Positions 5,545-61,694 of a stretch of 64,000 nucleotides of DNA are shown here, one piece after another. This DNA comes from an uncultured Actinomycetes bacterium (GTDB lineage: Bacteria; Actinomycetota; Thermoleophilia; Gaiellales; JAICJC01). How positions within the stretch are numbered: the first letter of the stretch is position 1; every line of letters starts with the position of its first letter. A program made the position numbers and the translations under genes. The notes under the pieces are model-generated. The model had not been told where the DNA came from. It did not search any database and saw nothing but the letters and a program-made list of their open reading frames with translations. The DNA lies in the NCBI GenBank assembly GCA_963720885.1, contig CAVRGW010000005.1:871704-935703 (forward strand). Reading direction: 5' to 3'.

Positions 5545-6648
5545 TCACCGGTTCTCAGCGGTCGCCAATCGTTGGGCGAAGGCCACGAGCGCGCTCCGGT
5601 AGCGGGCCAGCGACTCGACCTCGACGTACTCCTCCGGCCCGTGATGCCCGCCTCCGGCCGGGCCGAACTCGATGCTGGGGATGCCGCGGTCGAGGAAGAA
5701 CACCGCATCGGAGGCGCCGTCGCGGCCCACCGCGGGCGCCTCGCCGCCGCCCGCGTCGCGGACGGCTTCGCGCAGCACGCGGACATGTTCCTCGCCCGGA
5801 TCGAGCGCCGCCGGCGGCAGCTCGTAGAGCGGCGTGATGGTCATCGCGCCGAGGCCCCGCACCTGGCGCAGAACCTCGTCCGGGTCCTGGTTGGGCAGGT
5901 AGCGGATGTCGACGTCCATCCGGCAGTGGTCGGGCACTTTGTTGACCGCGTCGCCGCCCGAGATGCGGCCGATGTTGATCGACGGCCGGGCGAACAGCTC
6001 GGACTGCGCGGTCGAGAACGGCAGTTCGAGGATCCGCTGGTAGAGATCGAGGGCTCGGAGGATCGCGTTCTCGCCCAGCCACGGCGTCGAGCCGTGCGCG
6101 CCGCGGCCCTCGACGTCGATCCGCAGCACCAGCACGCCCTTCGACTGCACGCCGATCTCGAGGTCGGTCGGCTCGCCGCAGATGACGAAGTCGCCGACGT
6201 GCCCCTCCTCGGCCAGGAAGGCGGACGCCTTGCCGCCGGCCGGCTCGTCCTCCCGCTCCTCGTCGGGGACGATCAGCAACTTGACCTTGACCCCGGGGAT
6301 CGTGTCGCGGGCGTCGGCCAGGTCGGCGAGGGCGGCGAGCATGCCGGCCAGACCGCCCTTCATGTCGTAGGCGCCGCGGCCGTAGACCCGCCCGTTGACG
6401 CGCCAGGGCGAGAACTGCTCGGCGCGGCCGGGAACGACGTCGACGTGTGCATTCCAGACAACGGTGCGCGGTCCGTCTCCCACGGCGGCGACCAGCGACG
6501 GCAGCCCGCGGTCGTACTGGACATGGGAGATGGAGCGCGCCTCCAGCCAGCCCTTGAGGAACGCGAACGCCTCATGGATGCCCTCGTCGCGGGAGGTGTC
6601 GTACGAGATCAGGCGCTCGAGGAGGGCGACTTCGTCGGCGGCGGCCAC
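5545..6648 (-). CDS. M20 family metallopeptidase (ArgE/DapE/ACY1-like)
   Basis: WNAHVDVVP..GRGAYDMKGG..VPDEE..GEPT..GRGAHGS motifs. GTG start at 6648. Confidence 0.8.
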   Translation of the reverse strand: MAAADEVALLERLISYDTSRDEGIHEAFAFLKGWLEARSISHVQYDRGLPSLVAAVGDGPRTVVWNAHVDVVPGRAEQFSPWRVNGRVYGRGAYDMKGGLAGMLAALADLADARDTIPGVKVKLLIVPDEEREDEPAGGKASAFLAEEGHVGDFVICGEPTDLEIGVQSKGVLVLRIDVEGRGAHGSTPWLGENAILRALDLYQRILELPFSTAQSELFARPSINIGRISGGDAVNKVPDHCRMDVDIRYLPNQDPDEVLRQVRGLGAMTITPLYELPPAALDPGEEHVRVLREAVRDAGGGEAPAVGRDGASDAVFFLDRGIPSIEFGPAGGGHHGPEEYVEVESLARYRSALVAFAQRLATAENR

Positions 6649-6655
6649 GGCGGCG

Positions 6656-6661
6656 ATTGTA
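6656..6661 (-). promoter_or_regulatory. candidate -10 box (TACAAT) for a leaderless M20 peptidase transcript
   Basis: The minus strand reads TACAAT-cgccgcc-GTG, so the hexamer ends 7 nt before the start codon and there is no SD. Confidence 0.3.
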
Positions 6662-6675
6662 GGCTAGGAGCGGCC

Positions 6676-7863
6676 GTGTCCACGCCGTCTCTGTGGCAGA
6701 TCCAGGCTCCGTCGCGGGGCCATGACCGGCTCCGGGGCGACGTCTCGGCCGACGTCTGCATCGTCGGCGCCGGTGTCACCGGGGGTGCGTGCGCGTGGCG
6801 GCTGCTCGAGCACGGACTGCGGCCGGTGGTGCTCGACGCGCGCGAGGCGGCGGCGTCGGCGAGCGGCCGCAACGGCGGGTTCGCGGTCGGCTCGAGCGAC
6901 GCAGCGGCCGACCGGGCGCTCGCCGAGATGGCGGCGATGGCGGCCGAGCTGGGCGTGGCCGACGCTGTGCAGAGGCGGGGAAGCCTATGGCTGGGCGGTG
7001 AGAACGACGCGCACGAGCTGCAGGACGCGGTGAACGCCGCGCACGCCGACGGGCTGCCGGTCGAGGACGCGCTCGACCGCGTGCCCGCGCCGATGCGCGG
7101 CAGGTTCGCCACGGCGGCGTTCTTTCCCGGCGACGGCGAGCTGGAGCCGGCGCGCTGGGTGCGGGCGCTGGTCGATGGGGCGGCGGCCCGCGGCGCGGCG
7201 GTGCACGAGCACTCGCCGGCGACGGCGGTGGAGTCGCGCGCCGGCGGGTGGTCCGTGCGGACGCCCGGCGGGGCGGTGTCCTGCCAAGCGGTGGTCGTGG
7301 CCTGCGATGGGCTGATCCCGCGGGTGGCGTCGTGGCTCGACGGCTACATCTACCCGGTGCGCGGGCAGATGCTGGCGACGGAGCCGCTGCCGCCCGAGCG
7401 GCGGGTGCTGTGGTGCCCGACCCATTCGGGGTTCGGGTTCTGGTACTACCGGCCGACGGGCGACGGGCGGATCGCGCTGGGCGGCGGGAGGCTGGCCGAC
7501 CTCGAGGCGGAGTACACGGATGTCGAGGAGACGACGCCCGCGGTGCAGGCGGCGCTCGAGCGCTTCCTGGCGGACGACCTCGGCCTCGCCGGCGTCGCCG
7601 TCACGCACCGCTGGGCGGGCGTGATGGGCTTCTCGGCCGACCTCGTGCCGCTGGCCGGCGAGGTGCCCGGCCGGCCGGGGCTGTACGTCAGCGGCGGCTA
7701 CAGTGGCGTCGGCAACGTCAACGGCTGGCGCTGCGGGCGGCTCGTGGCCGACCTGATCGCCACCGGCGCCCACACCGACGCTGCGCGCTTCGACCCGGCG
7801 CGCTTCGGCGACGGGCCGCCGCCCGAGCCGCTCGAGAAGGCCGCCAGCCGCGAACTGCTCTGA
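6676..7863 (+). CDS. FAD-dependent oxidoreductase (DAO/glycine-oxidase-like family)
   Basis: This is the last 395 codons of ORF 4195..7863. GTG 6676 is preceded by AGGAG (6666-6670). Dinucleotide-binding motif VCIVGAGVTGGACAWRL; C-terminal GGYSGVG. Confidence 0.8.
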   Translation: MSTPSLWQIQAPSRGHDRLRGDVSADVCIVGAGVTGGACAWRLLEHGLRPVVLDAREAAASASGRNGGFAVGSSDAAADRALAEMAAMAAELGVADAVQRRGSLWLGGENDAHELQDAVNAAHADGLPVEDALDRVPAPMRGRFATAAFFPGDGELEPARWVRALVDGAAARGAAVHEHSPATAVESRAGGWSVRTPGGAVSCQAVVVACDGLIPRVASWLDGYIYPVRGQMLATEPLPPERRVLWCPTHSGFGFWYYRPTGDGRIALGGGRLADLEAEYTDVEETTPAVQAALERFLADDLGLAGVAVTHRWAGVMGFSADLVPLAGEVPGRPGLYVSGGYSGVGNVNGWRCGRLVADLIATGAHTDAARFDPARFGDGPPPEPLEKAASRELL

Positions 7864-7867
7864 GGGT

Positions 7868-7927
7868 GCGACAGGGGGTCAGGAACCGCGTCGCAGCACT
7901 GCGACGCGGTTCCTGACCCCCTGTCGC
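7868..7927. repeat. REP/REPIN-like perfect palindrome (class I), 29-bp arms
   Basis: GCGACAGGGGGTCAGGAACCGCGTCGCAG-ca-CTGCGACGCGGTTCCTGACCCCCTGTCGC. It begins 5 nt after the upstream stop. Confidence 0.9.
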
Positions 7928-7960
7928 GTATTCCTTGACCGCTCGTGACTGACACGCGGC

Positions 7961-8686
7961 ATGCCTGGACCGTACCGTCACGCGATGCCACGTCAGCCGC
8001 GGATCCAGTTCGAAGACGCTGCGTACCACGTGATGCAGCGAGGAGTCGACAAGCAGTTGATCGTCCGCGACGACCAGGACCGGCGGACGCTGATCGGGCT
8101 ACTCGCGCGGACCGTGATCGAACACCGCTGGAGCCTGACAGCGTATTGCCTGATGGACAACCATCTCCACGCGCTGATCCGAACGCGGAAGCCGAACCTT
8201 GCCGTTGGGATGAAGCTCTTTCAGCAGACATACGTGCGCCGGTTCAACGACCGGCACCGCCGCATCGGCCCGTTGTTCCAGGGCAGATACAAGGCCAAGC
8301 TCCTCACCCGAAACGAGCACCACATCGCCACCCTCCGGTACATCCCGCTGAACCCGGTCGCACACGGCGCGTGTGGCCATCCGGCGAGCTGGCGCTGGTC
8401 AAGCTACCGAGCGACGATCACGCCAGCGATCGCGCCCGACTTCTTGGATGCCGATGCGGTCGCAGAACTGTTCGACGAGGGTGTAGAGGGGTACCGGCGG
8501 TTCGTCGAACACGGCATCCCTGACGCCCTCGAGCGAGCGAGACCCCGCCTGCCTCTCGAGGTGTTACTGACCCGCACCGATGGCATCCACGCCGCCCGCA
8601 AGCACGGCTACTCGCTTCGGCAGATCGGCGAAGCCGTTGGGCTCCACCACTCGGCCATCGCCCGCATCCTTCGGCGCGGTACATAG
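7961..8686 (+). CDS. IS200-like Y1 (HUH) transposase, REP-associated tyrosine transposase (RAYT)-like, with C-terminal HTH region
   Basis: PRIQFEDAAYHVMQRG, HUH motif DNHLHALI, GPLFQGRYKAK, catalytic-Tyr region LRYIPLNPV, C-terminal YSLRQIGEAVGLHHSAIARIL. The start is more likely ATG 7985 (MPRQPRI). Visibly lower GC3 than neighbours. Confidence 0.8.
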   Translation: MPGPYRHAMPRQPRIQFEDAAYHVMQRGVDKQLIVRDDQDRRTLIGLLARTVIEHRWSLTAYCLMDNHLHALIRTRKPNLAVGMKLFQQTYVRRFNDRHRRIGPLFQGRYKAKLLTRNEHHIATLRYIPLNPVAHGACGHPASWRWSSYRATITPAIAPDFLDADAVAELFDEGVEGYRRFVEHGIPDALERARPRLPLEVLLTRTDGIHAARKHGYSLRQIGEAVGLHHSAIARILRRGT

Positions 8687-8687
8687 C

Positions 8688-8747
8688 GCGACAGGGGGTC
8701 AGGAACCCTGGCGCATCGGTGCGCCAGGGTTCCTGACCCCCTGTCGC
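8688..8747. repeat. REP/REPIN-like perfect palindrome (class I), 28-bp arms
   Basis: GCGACAGGGGGTCAGGAACCCTGGCGCA-tcgg-TGCGCCAGGGTTCCTGACCCCCTGTCGC. It lies between convergent genes. Confidence 0.9.
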
Positions 8748-8757
8748 AGTCTGCTCG

Positions 8758-9393
8758 CTACGCGGCCGGCGGCGGTGGCAACGGCTGGTTCCATTCGGGG
8801 GAAGGGACGTCGTCCGGCTCATCCTCGGGTTGGAACCAGGGGTAGCGGTCGGTGGTGAGCAGCTGCGCGTAGGCGGTGTAGCGCACGTAGTAACGCTGCG
8901 GGAGCTCCATGATCTCGAAGATGCTCCGCGGGAGACGCCCAGTCACGATGATCACGAACCACGCGACCACCGCCATCAGGCTCTCCAGGACACCGAGCGC
9001 CAACTGCACGAAATACGCCGGGTACTGGAGGATGTATCGGAAGAAGGTCGTCAGCCGCGAAAGATGCTCGGGAACCTCGGCGGTCACCTGGATCGGGTAG
9101 CCGTCGTCGGGCGATCCGGCGCCGAACGGCGGGAACCTGTCCGTCAGCAGGCTGGCGTAGCAGCGCACGCGGGTCGCGTACCGGAGGTATCCCGTCTGGA
9201 ACCCGAACATTCCCTCGGGGTAGCGACCCGTGAAAAGGATCGCGAACCAGGCGATGAACGACAGAACCGTCGCCGCGATCGCGTAGAAGATGAGCACGAA
9301 CAGGTGGGGGATCACCATGAAGATCCGGAAGAAGGTCGTCAGCCGGGACGCATGCTCGTGGTACTCCAGCCGGGTGTGGACGGGATACGCCAC
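8758..9393 (-). CDS. DUF4389-type membrane protein (two internal repeats)
   Basis: SRLTTFFR..IPH..WFAILFTGRYP occurs twice, followed by C-terminal DRYPWFQPE..VPSPEW.QPLPPP. GTG start 9393. Confidence 0.7.
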   Translation of the reverse strand: MAYPVHTRLEYHEHASRLTTFFRIFMVIPHLFVLIFYAIAATVLSFIAWFAILFTGRYPEGMFGFQTGYLRYATRVRCYASLLTDRFPPFGAGSPDDGYPIQVTAEVPEHLSRLTTFFRYILQYPAYFVQLALGVLESLMAVVAWFVIIVTGRLPRSIFEIMELPQRYYVRYTAYAQLLTTDRYPWFQPEDEPDDVPSPEWNQPLPPPPAA

Positions 9394-9402
9394 GCGTTGT
9401 CC

Positions 9403-10095
9403 CTACGCCTCCGACGGGGGCGGAAGCGGCTGATCCCACTCGGGCGACGGCACGTTGCCCTGCTCGCTCTCCGGCTGGAACCATGGATACCGGTCGGTCA
9501 CCAGGTTCCCGAATGACTGGAGCCGGATCGAGTACCGGTACGGCAGCTCGATCAGCTCGAACAGCGTCGCCGGGAACCGGCCCGTGATCAGGATCGCGAA
9601 CCACGCCACGATCGACACCAGCCAGCCGAACAGCCACAGGAAGAACACGACGATGTACGCCGGTAGCAGGTACAGCTCCACGAGGGCCGTCACGGGACTG
9701 ATCCGCGTCAGCACGTTGGTGATCACGTCCGGCACGCGCAGCGCGGTGGTCAGGCGCGAGAGGTGGTCGGCGCGCTCGATCGAGTACGCCACGTTCGGGT
9801 ACGCGCCCTCCTCGTCACGCCCGTGGAACGGCGGGAACCGGTCGGTCAGCAGCCAGTAAAACGCGCCGATCCGGCTGGTGTAGCGCAGGTAGCGCTCCTG
9901 CCACTCCAGCGACCCCTGCGGGTACTGGCCCTTGGCCAGGATCGCAAACCACGCGTACAGCGTCACGAACCCGGCGGCGATCGAGTAGCCGATCCACCAG
10001 ATCACGTGCGGGATCATCATGATCCCGCGGAAGAATGTCGTCAGCCGCGAATAGCGCTCGGCGCGCTGAACTCTGAGCCGTACCGGATATGCCAC
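9403..10095 (-). CDS. DUF4389-type membrane protein, tandem paralogue of 8758..9393
   Basis: Same motifs as its neighbour (SRLTTFFRGIMMIPH, WFAILAKGQYP, WFAILITGRFP, DRYPWFQPE). Start set to GTG 10095 (VAYPV, as in the paralogue), downstream of the atpC stop. Confidence 0.7.
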   Translation of the reverse strand: MAYPVRLRVQRAERYSRLTTFFRGIMMIPHVIWWIGYSIAAGFVTLYAWFAILAKGQYPQGSLEWQERYLRYTSRIGAFYWLLTDRFPPFHGRDEEGAYPNVAYSIERADHLSRLTTALRVPDVITNVLTRISPVTALVELYLLPAYIVVFFLWLFGWLVSIVAWFAILITGRFPATLFELIELPYRYSIRLQSFGNLVTDRYPWFQPESEQGNVPSPEWDQPLPPPSEA

Positions 10096-10120
10096 GCCGT
10101 GTTGTTCGGCGTGCCCGGGC

Positions 10121-12543
<2,423 letters not shown>

Positions 12544-15231: not shown

Positions 15232-15253
15232 AGAGGGGGATGGTACGTGATGG

Positions 15254-16264
15254 TCAGCCGAGCCGGATGCGCGGATCGATCCAGGCGTACAGCAGGTCGA
15301 CGATCAGGTTGAAGATGATCACAACCACAGAGGCGAACACCACCACCCCCAGCGTGATCGGGTAGTCGAACTGGCTGAGCGACTTGATCGCCACGTAGCC
15401 GAGGCCGGGGAGGCTGTACACCGACTCCAGCAGCACGGCGCCACCGAGCGCCAGCGCCACGTCCATGCCGAATGCCGTGACCACGGGCAGCATGGCGTTG
15501 CGCAGCACGTGCTGCGTCAGAACGCGCCGCTCCGGCGCGCCCTTGGCGCGGGCCGTTCGGACGTAGTCCTCGTTCTGCACCTCCATCACCTGCGACCGGA
15601 CGAGCCGGACGTAGAACGCGGCGTACAGGAACGCGAACACGGACCAGGGCAGCAGCAGGTGGTAGAACCAGTCGACCGGCCCGCCGCAGGTCTCGCCGGG
15701 GGCTGCACCGCTGAACGAGCAATAGCCCTGGATCGGGAGCAGCGTGAATGCCGGGAAGTTGAAGAAGAGGAAGTGCCCGGTGGTCGGGATGTAGCCCAGG
15801 AAGTAGGAGCCGATCAGCGCCAGCCACACCGGGTGCACCGAGATGCCGGCCAGCACGAAGACCATCGAGAAGCGGTCGAGCGCGGAGCGCGGCCGCAGCG
15901 CGGAGAGCACGCCGATCGGAATGGCGATCAGCATCCAGAGGATCGCGGCGCCGATTACCAGGGACGCCGTGATCGGAGCCGCCGACTTGATCACGTCGTT
16001 GACGCTCTGCCGGTTGGCGTACGAGTAGCCGAGGTTGCCGTGCAGCACCAGCTGATCGAGGAAGTGCAGGTACTGCTTCCAGATCGGTTGATCCAGGTAC
16101 AGCTGGTGCGCCACCCGCTTGACGTCGGCCGGCGTCGCCGCCTTGCCTGCGGCCAACCGGGCCGGATCCACGGGGATCATATAGAAGATGACGAAAGTGA
16201 CCAGAGTGACGGCGATGAAGAGCACCACCGCCCACAAGAGCCTTCTGATGATGTAACGGATCAT
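15254..16264 (-). CDS. ABC transporter permease (OppB/DppB-like)
   Basis: 336 aa: MIRYIIRRLLWAVVLFIAVTLVTFVIF.., with EAA-like region VRTARAKGAPERRVL.HVLRNA. Confidence 0.9.
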   Translation of the reverse strand: MIRYIIRRLLWAVVLFIAVTLVTFVIFYMIPVDPARLAAGKAATPADVKRVAHQLYLDQPIWKQYLHFLDQLVLHGNLGYSYANRQSVNDVIKSAAPITASLVIGAAILWMLIAIPIGVLSALRPRSALDRFSMVFVLAGISVHPVWLALIGSYFLGYIPTTGHFLFFNFPAFTLLPIQGYCSFSGAAPGETCGGPVDWFYHLLLPWSVFAFLYAAFYVRLVRSQVMEVQNEDYVRTARAKGAPERRVLTQHVLRNAMLPVVTAFGMDVALALGGAVLLESVYSLPGLGYVAIKSLSQFDYPITLGVVVFASVVVIIFNLIVDLLYAWIDPRIRLG

Positions 16265-27894: not shown

Positions 27895-28038
27895 ATGTAC
27901 CACCTGATCCTCCAGGCAACGAAGCCGCCGCGTCCACACGAGCGAGAGACCGAGCGCCAGCACTTCGAGCGGATGGCGCGCGAGGCGCGCAAGTCGCAGC
28001 GGCGCATCCTTTCCCGCCGGCGCAAGCCGGCTGCGTGA
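27895..28038 (+). CDS. hypothetical very basic 47-aa protein
   Basis: ATG 27895 lies 8 nt after AGGGAG (27881-27886). MYHLILQATKPPRPHERETERQHFERMAREARKSQRRILSRRRKPAA. GC3 is high. Too short for the ORF track. Confidence 0.4.
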   Translation: MYHLILQATKPPRPHERETERQHFERMAREARKSQRRILSRRRKPAA

Positions 28039-28105
28039 AACAACGGGGTCAGACCCCTTTGTTTCACCGCCACGCAACAACGGGGTCAGACCCCTTTGTT
28101 GCGTG
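28035..28105. repeat. two tandem REP-like hairpins (class II core GGGGTCAGACCCC)
   Basis: GTGAAACAAcGGGGtcagaCCCCtTTGTTTCAC (28035-28067) and CACGCAACAAcGGGGtcagaCCCCtTTGTTGCGTG (28071-28105). They share an identical 25-nt core, and the outer stems differ but stay complementary. They lie between convergent genes. Confidence 0.8.
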
Positions 28106-28114
28106 GCGTCCGGG

Positions 28115-36785: not shown

Positions 36786-36815
36786 AGGTGGAGAGCCTAG
36801 CGCCTTGGTGCGACT

Positions 36816-36859
36816 GGGGTCAGGAACCTCTGGCATTGGTGCCAGAGGTTCCTGACCCC
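36816..36859. repeat. REP-like palindrome (class I, shortened copy)
   Basis: GGGGTCAGGAACCTCTGGCA-ttgg-TGCCAGAGGTTCCTGACCCC. It is preceded by gcgact (compare GCGACA in the RAYT-flanking copies). Confidence 0.85.
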
Positions 36860-36871
36860 GATGGCACATCC

Positions 36872-60078: not shown

Positions 60079-60939
60079 GTGGCGGTTCCCGATCGCGTGA
60101 CCGTCGTCGAAGTCGGGCCGCGCGACGGCCTGCAGAACGAGGACGCGCTGGTGCCGACGGCGGCCAAGGTGCTGCTGATCGAGGAGCTGGCGCGATGCGG
60201 GCTGCCGGTCGTCGAGGCGACGTCCTTCGTCAGCCCGCAGGCAGTGCCACAGCTCGCGGATGCCGAGGACGTCATGCGGGCGCTCGACCGGCGCGAGGGC
60301 GTCCGCTATCCCGTGCTCGTGCCGAACATGCGCGGCATGCAGCGCGCCGAGGCGGCCGGGGCGGAGGCGGTCGCGGTGTTCACGGCGGCGTCGGAGGCAT
60401 TCACGTCGGCGAACTTGAACATGACGATCGGCGACTCGCTGGATGCGGCCGAGGAGGTGCTCGACCGCGCGGCCGAGCTCGGCTGGTGGCGTCGTGGGTA
60501 CGTGTCGACGGCCTTCGGTTGTCCCTACCAGGGGCCGGTCGACGAGGAGGACGTGGTGCGAGTGGCCGATGCGCTGATCGACCTGGGATGCGAGGAGGTC
60601 TCGATCGGCGACACGATCGGCATTGCCAATCCCGACGACATCGATCGGGTGGTCGGTGCGCTCCTCGAGCGGATCCCCGCCGAGCGCCTGGCGCTGCACC
60701 TGCACGACACCGGCGGCCGGGCGCTGGAGAACGTCGAGGCCGGCCTCGAGCTGGGCATCGCCGTCTTCGACGGCTCGGCCGGCGGCGCGGGCGGCTGCCC
60801 CTTCGCCCCTGGCGCTCCCGGCAACCTCGCAACCGAACAGTTGGTCGCGCTGCTCGACCGCCACGGCATCGCCCACGGCGTCGATCTCGACCGCCTCACC
60901 GCCACCGGCGCCGGGCTGCGCTCGCTGCTCGGGGTCTGA
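60079..60939 (+). CDS. hydroxymethylglutaryl-CoA lyase
   Basis: 286 aa: VVEVGPRDGLQNE..; HLHDTGG.AL.N; GGAGGCPFAPGA.GN.ATE. The stop codon lies inside the class II repeat. Confidence 0.9.
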   Translation: MAVPDRVTVVEVGPRDGLQNEDALVPTAAKVLLIEELARCGLPVVEATSFVSPQAVPQLADAEDVMRALDRREGVRYPVLVPNMRGMQRAEAAGAEAVAVFTAASEAFTSANLNMTIGDSLDAAEEVLDRAAELGWWRRGYVSTAFGCPYQGPVDEEDVVRVADALIDLGCEEVSIGDTIGIANPDDIDRVVGALLERIPAERLALHLHDTGGRALENVEAGLELGIAVFDGSAGGAGGCPFAPGAPGNLATEQLVALLDRHGIAHGVDLDRLTATGAGLRSLLGV

Positions 60940-60967
60940 CCCCGCTCTGACCCCGCTCTGACCCTGG
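60932..60967. repeat. class II repeat array, left flank of RAYT-2 (3 units of TCTGACCCCGC)
   Basis: GGG-TCTGACCCCGC-TCTGACCCCGC-TCTGACCCtgg. Positions 60932-60956 are the exact reverse complement of 61665-61689. Confidence 0.85.
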
Positions 60968-61041
60968 CCGTCACGATGTCGCGACGAATTCGCGACTTAA
61001 CGCTCGGTGAATCGCCACTCGAGGCGGCGTACCTTCGTCGA

Positions 61042-61653
61042 ATGTCACGCGATCCGAGAATCCAAGCCGCGGAGGCGTTCTTTCATGTCTCCACCCATTC
61101 CACCGACGACCAGCTGCTCTACCCGGAGGACGAGGACTGCCTCGAGTTCTGCGACGTCTTCGCCAAGGTGGTCAAGCGGTTCGAGTGGCGGTGCCACGCC
61201 TACGTCCTGATGGGCACGCACAACCACCTGCTGCTCGAGACCGAACACGCCAATCTGAGCCGAGGCATGCAGTACCTGAACGGTGTCTACGCGCAGCGGT
61301 TCAACCGCCGGCACCGACGGGCGGGACCCACGCAGCGAGCGCGTTACTGGTCAGCACCGGTCGAGACAGACGCGCACGTCTTCGAGGTCTCGAGGTACTT
61401 CCCGATGAACCCCGTGCGCGGTGGCATGTGCTCGCATCCGGCTGACTGGCCATGGTCGAGCTATCGAGCGATGACCGGCACCGCAGAGCCGCCGCCGTTC
61501 TTGACGACGTCCTGGCTCCTGCAGATGTTCGACGACGATCTCGACCGCGCCCGCGTGCTCTACCGACGGTTCGTGGACGAGAGTCTGGATGATCTGGAGG
61601 CGCACAGGAAGGCCATGCGTGCGTTCGCGAAGTCGGCACACGTCGTCACGTAG
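61042..61653 (+). CDS. divergent IS200-like Y1 transposase / RAYT-like protein (paralogue of 7961..8686)
   Basis: ORF 60976..61653. The start is preferred at ATG 61042 (MSRDPRIQAAEAFFHV, which aligns to MPRQPRIQFEDAAYHV). YVLMGTHNHLLLET aligns with CLMDNHLHALIRT; SRYFPMNPV aligns with LRYIPLNPV. Visibly lower GC than the flanks. Confidence 0.7.
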   Translation: MSRDPRIQAAEAFFHVSTHSTDDQLLYPEDEDCLEFCDVFAKVVKRFEWRCHAYVLMGTHNHLLLETEHANLSRGMQYLNGVYAQRFNRRHRRAGPTQRARYWSAPVETDAHVFEVSRYFPMNPVRGGMCSHPADWPWSSYRAMTGTAEPPPFLTTSWLLQMFDDDLDRARVLYRRFVDESLDDLEAHRKAMRAFAKSAHVVT

Positions 61654-61664
61654 TTTTGACTCAA

Positions 61665-61694
61665 GCGGGGTCAGAGCGGGGTCAGACCCGGGTC
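61665..61694. repeat. class II repeat array, right flank of RAYT-2 (2 units of GCGGGGTCAGA)
   Basis: GCGGGGTCAGA-GCGGGGTCAGA-CCCgggtc, in inverted orientation relative to 60932-60956. Confidence 0.85.

Follow-up and report, generated by a model that had tools for sequence, protein, structure and literature searches.

The question raised by this locus is what kind of system is formed by a transposase-like gene that stands between two long perfect palindromes. The locus lies in a stretch of 64,000 nucleotides (the window; contig CAVRGW010000005.1, positions 871,704 to 935,703, assembly GCA_963720885.1) from an uncultured Actinomycetes bacterium of the Gaiellales and comprises a gene for a Y1/HUH protein, Y1-A, with one palindrome upstream (A1) and another downstream (A2). 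A preliminary description had taken it for a RAYT, a tyrosine transposase of the kind that accompanies repetitive extragenic palindromes (REPs), with its REP doublets (REPINs), as opposed to a mobile IS200. We find that it is, with little room for doubt, a TIRYT gene accompanied by cognate inverted repeats of the GGGGWSAS type. We further favor, as the probable reading, that the locus is a "TIRtron," i.e., a chromosomally fixed, vertically inherited TIRYT class 2 Y1/HUH single-stranded DNA (ssDNA) endonuclease/transposase together with its cognate inverted repeats, which it would mobilize. TIRYTs were defined in 2013 by Di Nocera et al. as RAYT-like genes with long flanking terminal inverted repeats (TIRs) that share GGGGWSAS; some of these TIRs are self-complementary or "double palindromic," and moderately abundant families occur as dimers or clusters (PMC3733652). 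They correspond to TnpA-Y1 subclass 2.1 of Quentin et al. 2018 (PMC6006769), the largest class 2 Y1 group, found in ~15% of strains (PMC6006769), and to RAYT group 1 of Bertels et al. 2017, who rated that group the most IS-like (insertion sequence-like) among the true RAYT groups (PMC5581495).

The Y1-A open reading frame (ORF; 241 amino acids [aa]) contains, as first described, the sequences DNHLHALI, GRYKAK, and RYIPLNP, and its probable start codon at 7985 (233 aa) matches those of the orthologues. It is recognized by the Pfam profile Y1_Tnp (PF01797; E = 5e-7, 30.2 bits against a cutoff of 23) and carries a C-terminal helix-turn-helix (HTH) of the HTH_38/HTH_23 type at residues ~209 to 240. 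In an alignment of 51 homologues, H68, H70, Y127, and N131 are invariant, the HuH motif being H68-L-H70. The catalytic tyrosine is predicted to be Y127 of RYIPLNP and not that of GRYKAK, because the latter is a phenylalanine in the orthologue from contig L013. The resulting Y---NP motif is unlike the Y---Q of IS200/IS605 (subclass 1.1). The AF2 model (pLDDT 93.2) has as its best PDB fold match in Foldseek the E. coli RAYT-REP complex (4ER8; E = 1e-7, TM 0.76 on the target), followed by 2VJV, 2XMA, 2A6M, and 2F4F in a range reaching E = 6e-4, with IS608, ISDra2, and IS200 at E ~1e-4; a sequence search of the PDB with Y1-A found no match, so that fold comparison alone gave matches there. An exact-protein look-up with either start codon likewise found none. 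No tnpB lies next to the gene, whose neighbors encode an oxidoreductase and a DUF4389 protein. These observations agree with the earlier view that this is not a mobile IS200. The AT-richness noted there is borne out by the third-codon-position G+C content (GC3; 0.81 versus 0.90 to 0.97 in eight neighboring genes).

Within the RAYT lineage, the placement is more specific than had been proposed. With the sequences of Additional file 5 of PMC3733652 as the reference, BLAST ranks TIRYTs highest (sml_4509, E = 6e-34; sml_1152, E = 4e-31; 14 main-group TIRYTs at E <= 2e-14), the identity to the best-matching published members being 30 to 40%, while RAYTs follow at E = 1e-8 to 2e-5 (Pseudomonas and Stenotrophomonas) and E = 3e-3 (E. 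coli b228). The features listed for subclass 2.1, namely, a median of 238 aa, NH[VYF]H, W[EQ]/FQ, Y[IV]xLNP, and a C-terminal HTH (PMC6006769 Table 1), are all matched by Y1-A (241 aa, NHLH, FQ, YIPLNP, and the HTH), with the leucine at the u position as a minor departure. Against the NCBIfam RAYT equivalog NF047646 (REP_Tyr_transpos), it scores 65.4 bits, below the cutoff of 80, and therefore Y1-A is not a canonical GTAG-REP RAYT. By its Y---NP motif and its best structural match, it is a class 2 Y1/HUH enzyme of the RAYT lineage and not an IS200 transposase; of the original placement, the separation from IS200 TnpA stands, whereas the closest relatives are TIRYTs (E = 6e-34 to 2e-14) and not canonical RAYTs (E = 1e-8 to 3e-3).

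The two palindromes have the coordinates, arm lengths, and 100% complementarity originally reported: the 29-nt arms of A1 (7868-7896/7899-7927) enclose a 2-nt loop, and the 28-nt arms of A2 (8688-8715/8720-8747) enclose a 4-nt loop. The stop codon of the oxidoreductase gene upstream is 4 nt ahead of A1, and the probable Y1-A start (7985) comes 57 nt after this palindrome; A2 follows the stop codon of Y1-A by 1 nt, and the convergent DUF4389 gene ends 10 nt away from it. As ssDNA they fold at -42.7 kcal/mol (z = -13.4) and -42.3 kcal/mol (z = -13.5), respectively. A common 20-mer, GCGACAGGGGGTCAGGAACC, forms the outer part of both; it is present four times in the window and in none of 100 shuffles. 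The centers are unlike but self-complementary in each, again as described. A1 reads GCGAC-AG-GGGGTCAGGAACC-GC-GTCGC-AG, a central CA, and then the mirror image. The conserved core of elements of this kind (type A) is the 13-nt GGGGTCAGGAACC, and every element type contains an inverted pair of GGGGTCAG motifs. The feet of the hairpins read GGTGCGAC, AGCGCGAC, and GGTGCGAC or GTGCCA, and neither GTAG nor GTGG is present there.

The general form of type A is (P1 - 2 nt - core - 2 nt - P1')(P1 - 2 nt - core' - 2 nt - P1'), where the P1 stem is, e.g., TGCGAC...GTCGCA in A1 and GGTGCCA...TGGCACC in L013. Such a sequence has two possible folds, a single 29-bp hairpin or a pair of small stem-loops in which the core and its complement are exposed in 17-nt loops. 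In the basic unit, a stem-loop, the core is enclosed by the two halves of a stem that varies. Head-to-head joining of this unit to its reverse complement gives the 60-nt palindrome, an arrangement known from REPINs, and a second form, type B (GGGGTC-N-GACCCC), is a collapsed version of the element. Pairing was counted by a core-anchored script, a MAFFT alignment of 12 elements having been set aside for its asymmetrically placed gaps. Among 13 actinobacterial-type elements, the long hairpin has a complementarity of 7.0 to 7.9 of 9 with its own partner and of ~4 of 9 with the partners of other elements; for the stem-loop within each arm, the corresponding values are 5.8 to 5.9 and 3.2 of 9. The symmetry within the arms is not a consequence of that of the long hairpin, and both levels covary. 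With this double-level covariation and the stable fold, the elements qualify as REPINs (Bertels & Rainey) in the sense of two inverted REP units forming one long hairpin. The other mark of REPINs is a replicating population of tens to hundreds of extragenic copies per genome; here, three type A copies are present in the 64-kb window, and metagenome contigs of other lineages have up to three in 14 kb. A model in which a fixed element was inserted into hairpin loops was rejected in its simple form for the actinobacterial type, because inner and outer stems covary when copies from a single genome are compared. A promoter and terminator scan of 7700-8900 found neither, the T-tract and terminator consensus being absent, and Rfam gave no family at gathering thresholds in the window or in five element-rich loci. 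The RAYT/REPIN assignment of the preliminary description therefore holds for the lineage and for the REPIN-like inverted doublets and fails for a canonical RAYT, given the 65.4 bits against 80, the foot lacking GT[AG]G, and the stronger TIRYT matches. The repeat consensus, which had seemed unfamiliar, is a published one: GGGGTCAG fits GGGGWSAS, reported in the TIRs that flank TIRYT genes (PMC3733652; PMC6006769).

Comparison with relatives separates the history of the gene from that of its hairpins. The order LytR, M20 peptidase, (oxidoreductase), Y1, (metH), DUF4389, atpC is kept at Y1 identities of 96, 92.5, 77, 62, 41, and 39%, and L005, a related contig from the metagenome-assembled genome (MAG) of an uncultured Actinomycetes bacterium (~94% nucleotide identity), is collinear with the window over 8 kb. 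Y1-A is under purifying selection, its ratio of nonsynonymous to synonymous divergence (dN/dS) being 0.23 to 0.30 compared with 0.06 for the M20 peptidase. Homologues of Y1-A occur in 17 of 72,556 plasmid records, the pair of cores has no match among viral contigs, and the sole other Y1 copy in the window is only 38% identical, with no identical copy there. By these data, the Y1-A gene is immobile and vertically inherited. The divergence around it is mosaic. Over 5545-10531, identity to L005 is 97.5% for the M20 peptidase, 92.5% for Y1, 78% for DUF4389, and 80% for atpC; against L013, in a comparison that also took in L127, DUF4389 is 94% identical and Y1 is 62% identical, with synonymous divergence (dS) of 0.93 versus 0.47. 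This pattern suggests that recombination has broken the sequence at the hairpins or close to them or that the Y1 allele was replaced.

The hairpins, in turn, are gained, lost, or decayed between close relatives while the gene stays. A1 is kept at the orthologous site in L005 (with two substitutions), L012, and L013/L014, and an upstream hairpin is present in all close orthologues; that of L013 and L014 has unlike outer and inner stems that are fully compensated. A2 is complete in the window alone: it is degraded in L127, absent from L013, and represented in L005 and L012 by a half-element, a tandem direct repeat of the outer arm plus half of the core. The site of a third palindrome, A3 (Table 1), shows the same. 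In 24 relatives whose adjacent protein is 95 to 98% identical, the spacer is 31 to 40 nt long versus ~85 nt, and 0 of 24 hold a full element; several keep remnants, such as GACCCC plus an outer arm, two abutting outer arms, or a 7-nt trace. A3 as a fresh insertion was considered and rejected, because relatives hold these remnants; since the remnants differ, A3 is old at its site and has decayed in several independent ways. Single-base details warrant care, especially in L005 and L012. In the window itself, atpD (minus strand, ~11255-11265) changes frame after about residue 232 (after RVGLTG). As the gene is essential, an indel of the long-read assembly is the most likely cause, and single-base details of the window also need caution. 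L012, a long-read metagenome contig with many fragmented genes, contains ~130 nt of near-pure (CG)n at 15247-15380, which is probably an assembly or basecalling artifact.

The motif had been expected beyond the two flanks of the gene, and it does occur elsewhere, both in the window, where A3 is the third copy, and in metagenomes. In a gapped search that required exact cores, and that therefore bears on the spread of the core and not on its variability, the core pair was recovered from metagenome contigs at at least 120 loci, on contigs from several phyla with GC contents of 41 to 77%. Among the matches listed, 10 to 40 nt separate the cores, the outer flanks are variable and complementary, and the main type has an asymmetric center that is found in both orientations; a Y1 gene is present in ~10 of 134 loci, and up to three copies lie on one contig. 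By a crude ORF-based estimate for those of the listed loci with GC contents of <=60%, 33% of elements fall inside an ORF of >=120 aa compared with 90% of bases, and 26 of 69 elements lie within 25 nt of a stop codon. A scan of genome-collection contigs with an 18-mer proved too specific, returning one syntenic relative (L005) plus chance or half-site matches.

The same motif accompanies homologous genes. In the six homologue loci (L135, L136, L137, L138, L009, and L074), GGGGTCAG lies ~45 to 115 nt upstream, except in L136, and an arm of the CTGACCCC type stands at or just past the stop codon, degraded to CCTGAGCAC in L074. Inverted flanking copies of GGGGTCAG are present on both sides in L135, L137, L138, and L009, and L136 has the downstream copy only, at a contig end. 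L009 has a Planctomycete TIRYT of the rba_2408 subgroup, whose identity to Y1-A is only 27%, with the same core on its flanks in inverted orientation. The syntenic Y1 gene of L135 and L137 is bracketed by imperfect hairpins of 33 nt, one reading CGCCAAAC-GGGGTCAGACCCC-TTTTGGCG and the other its reverse complement; the downstream one carries the TGA stop of the TIRYT at its apex (GCCAAAA-GGGGTC-TGA-CCCC-GTTTGGC; L135:3700-3740 and L137:10670-10710). The left arm and apex encode the last codons and the TGA, and therefore the repeat supplies the C terminus and stop of the protein; this is a REPtron-like layout with a collapsed type B core.

Some further observations concern the diversity of the elements. 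Type B (GGGGTCTGACCCC) and type A elements lie within 50 to 70 nt of one another in L025:2240-2365 and L004:2465-2560, and the outer stem of the L025 type B element, GGGTGCGACAG/GTGTCGCACCC, belongs to the stem family of A1, so that stems and cores look modular. On contigs of ~55% GC (L016-L134, e.g., L081:3110, 4554, and 7191), a very abundant element occurs in both orientations and in up to three copies within 14 kb (<=3). Its order is a variable outer stem, AAAA, the core, AATAG, mini-hairpins GCCAAATGGC and GTGCTCCGCAC around CCGGAGG, CTATT, core', and TTTT; a GC-richer version has the covarying mini-hairpins GCCGGAACGGC and GTGCTCGGCAC. The ~55% GC element matched no Rfam family.

The window also contains a second gene with repeats of its own, Y1-B (Table 1), and orphan hairpins of both types. 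The expectation that a RAYT should be single copy therefore fails here in a particular manner: the additional gene is a 38%-identical paralogue bracketed by its own inverted repeats. Its BLAST order resembles that of Y1-A (TIRYTs at E <= 4e-12, RAYTs at E >= 1e-11); the middle residue of its HuH motif, H-N-H, is polar, its Y motif is YFPMNP, FQ is absent, and the C-terminal tail is shorter. The left and right repeats of Y1-B are perfectly complementary over 26 nt and are made of tandem GGGGTCAGAGC units; on the left, GGGGTCTGACCCC of the repeat overlaps the TGA with which the upstream gene ends. The two type B orphans have the same orientation and a shared asymmetric center with unlike outer stems, and fold at -35.9 kcal/mol (z = -9.3); a convergent minus-strand gene has its stop codon 6 nt from their end. 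The hairpins on either side of the syntenic Y1 gene in L135 and L137 have the same center. A3, found by a scan for short-loop inverted repeats, belongs to the stem family GTGCCA/TGGCAC, has three outer-stem mismatches, and is intergenic, 4 nt past the etfA stop and 22 nt ahead of the start of the next gene. All of the intergenic hairpins of the window (A1 to A3 and the type B orphans) are thus 1 to 10 nt beyond stop codons. GGGGTCAG flanks Y1-A and Y1-B on either side in inverted orientation, and all 12 of its 12 sites in the window lie inside five structures of the kinds described here, with 3.2 sites expected by chance.

Table 1. Y1 genes, palindromes, and related repeats in the 64-kb window
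Feature	Position	Strand	Remark
Palindrome A1	7868..7927	.	60-nt perfect hairpin, conserved at orthologous sites
Y1-A, TIRYT-type (subclass 2.1/group 1) Y1 HUH gene	7961..8686	+	Pfam, motifs, BLAST, fold
Palindrome A2	8688..8747	.	60-nt perfect hairpin, polymorphic among relatives
Two tandem type B orphan hairpins	28035..28108 (28035-28067, 28068-28108)	+	center AAC-GGGGTCAGACCCC-TTT
Palindrome A3, orphan	36808..36867	.	same 13-nt core pair, 28 kb from the Y1-A locus
Y1-B left terminal inverted repeat	60932..60964	.	tandem CTGACCCC units
Y1-B, second TIRYT-type paralogue	60976..61653 (probable start 61042)	+	tblastn with Y1-A, 38% identity
Y1-B right terminal inverted repeat	61664..61694	.	AGCGGGGTCAG-AGCGGGGTCAG-ACCCGGGTC

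How such a system might work can be proposed from better-known enzymes. By analogy with IS608 TnpA and E. coli TnpA-REP, the enzyme would bind these hairpins when they are extruded as single strands. Y127 and a metal bound by the HuH motif would nick and rejoin the hairpin ssDNA, the C-terminal HTH may read the duplex core, and the elements could thereby be copied, moved, or regenerated in trans, the Y1-A gene itself remaining stationary. The hairpins placed 1 to 10 nt past stop codons are probably transcription or mRNA-end elements as well. Several points weigh against the TIRtron reading. Quentin et al. saw no REP-like sequences near subclass 2.1 genes and proposed other roles (PMC6006769), Bertels et al. 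report only a weak association of group 1 with repeats (PMC5581495), and we found no experimental work on TIRYTs in the literature searched, where the reports are computational. The pattern at the A3 site is the decay of an old element, or turnover, and not demonstrably a recent insertion. An upstream hairpin is present in every orthologue and the downstream one is not, which a regulatory or terminator role fits too. The HuH motif of Y1-B holds a polar residue (H-N-H), and the 64 kb of the window hold just three type A copies and two type B orphans.

The alternative that draws on several of these points is that the hairpins are host regulatory elements (factor-independent terminators, stabilizers of mRNA 3' ends, or operators for the HTH) and that the Y1 protein, having been domesticated, binds or processes DNA without mobilizing them, the shared sequence being a shared binding site. 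The placement of the window copies between genes just past stop codons would suit it, as would the similar distance from the start at which the upstream hairpin is kept in every orthologue, the HTH of Y1-A, the stop codon at the hairpin apex in L135 and L137, and the roles other than transposition proposed for subclass 2.1 (Quentin et al., PMC6006769). A pure DNA binder, however, would not need the HuH and Tyr residues that are invariant under purifying selection, and the T-tract and terminator consensus are absent from 7700-8900. Moreover, identical 13-nt cores at at least 120 loci across phyla, in unrelated intergenic sites and with asymmetric centers in both orientations, are the signature of copying and not of convergent operators, and presence or absence varies among relatives that are 95 to 98% identical in the adjacent protein. 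We therefore regard this alternative as doubtful, though one to be taken seriously.

That the locus is an ordinary autonomous IS of the IS200/IS605 type, moving as a unit with the two hairpins as its subterminal ends, is very improbable. The name of the best Pfam match ("Transposase IS200 like"), the bracketing of the gene by hairpins, its GC3 below that of its neighbors, and the second related gene in the window could all be read in this way. Nevertheless, the Y motif is Y---NP and not Y---Q (PMC6006769 Table 1), the gene keeps its place on the chromosome among relatives whose identity ranges from 96% to ~40%, and the paralogue is just 38% identical with different ends. There is no adjacent tnpB, the palindromes are perfect over 60 nt and not short imperfect subterminal hairpins, the family is nearly absent from plasmids, and the core pair is absent from viral contigs. 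The palindromes could also be by-products of replication or assembly without biological meaning (fold-back artifacts or chimeric long-read assembly); the atpD frameshift is at least one likely assembly indel in the window, L012 has many fragmented genes, and misassembly at a palindrome could account for the half-element of L005 and L012. This explanation is refuted, because the elements recur in independent assemblies made by different projects with different technologies (ENA long-read contigs, JGI and ENA short-read contigs, and NCBI MAGs), at orthologous sites and with compensated stems, and we give it practically no weight.

A broader interpretation of the TIRtron can be offered, tentatively and as an unlikely one at this stage. 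TIRYTs and GGGGTCAG hairpins could form a long-lived vertical partnership of the REPIN-RAYT kind across Actinomycetota and several other phyla, with an architecture inverted relative to that of classical REPs: a conserved 13-nt module would be framed by the two halves of a stem free to vary, and inverted duplication of this unit would produce the doublet. The core module might be installed into the loops of preexisting hairpins such as terminators, which would account both for outer stems that vary and covary and for the location right behind stops. If true, this partnership would overturn the published view of subclass 2.1/group 1 as being without REP-like partners. The finding itself leaves the known picture unchanged. 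The literature disagrees on whether TIRYT/subclass 2.1 genes have partner repeats, and the present locus provides a clean natural case: the 64-kb window contains two paralogous gene-repeat pairs, and orthologous sites in many sequenced relatives show full, half, and decayed elements. The A1, A2, A3, and type B hairpins, together with H68, H70, Y127, and the HTH, offer concrete substrates and mutants for a first biochemical test.

Of the known systems, the IS200/IS605 TnpA proteins (IS608 and ISDra2) share with Y1-A the HUH/Y1 fold, the catalytic residues, and the presumed recognition of single-strand hairpins; they differ in having Y---Q where Y1-A has Y---NP and short imperfect subterminal hairpins where this locus has long perfect palindromes, and the locus is fixed, without tnpB and without identical copies. 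The RAYT-REPIN systems (E. coli TnpA-REP/YafM, 4ER8, and Pseudomonas groups 2 and 3) are closer. They have in common with the present one an immobile, vertically inherited Y1/HUH gene with inverted hairpin flanks, dispersed intergenic doublets that fold into long hairpins, and the presence in a genome of several diverged paralogues that each have a repeat type of their own, and they provide the best structural match to Y1-A. In contrast to them, the GT[AG]G tetranucleotide is absent from the hairpin foot, conservation falls on the sequence enclosed by a variable stem and not, as in REPs, on the stem itself, and Y1-A falls under the NCBIfam RAYT cutoff and has an HTH tail, which canonical RAYTs lack. 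The copy number, as judged from the 64-kb window, appears modest. The locus belongs to the TIRYT/TIRtron kind known since 2013, with which it shares a protein of ~240 aa with a C-terminal HTH, the motifs NHxH, FQ, and Y[IV]xLNP, and flanks that contain GGGGWSAS. It differs from the published cases in that the hairpin repeats stand beside a subclass for which no REP-like sequences were reported (PMC6006769) and that both flanks are complete 60-nt perfect palindromes. What is new is its occurrence in a Gaiellales-like actinomycete, the published hosts being Proteobacteria, Acidobacteria, Planctomycetes, and one Firmicute, along with descriptive detail: a core that extends to 13 nt and is common across phyla, the unit-doublet architecture, the series of decayed elements, and a gene position conserved down to ~40% identity, as opposed to the IS-like rating of group 1 (PMC5581495).

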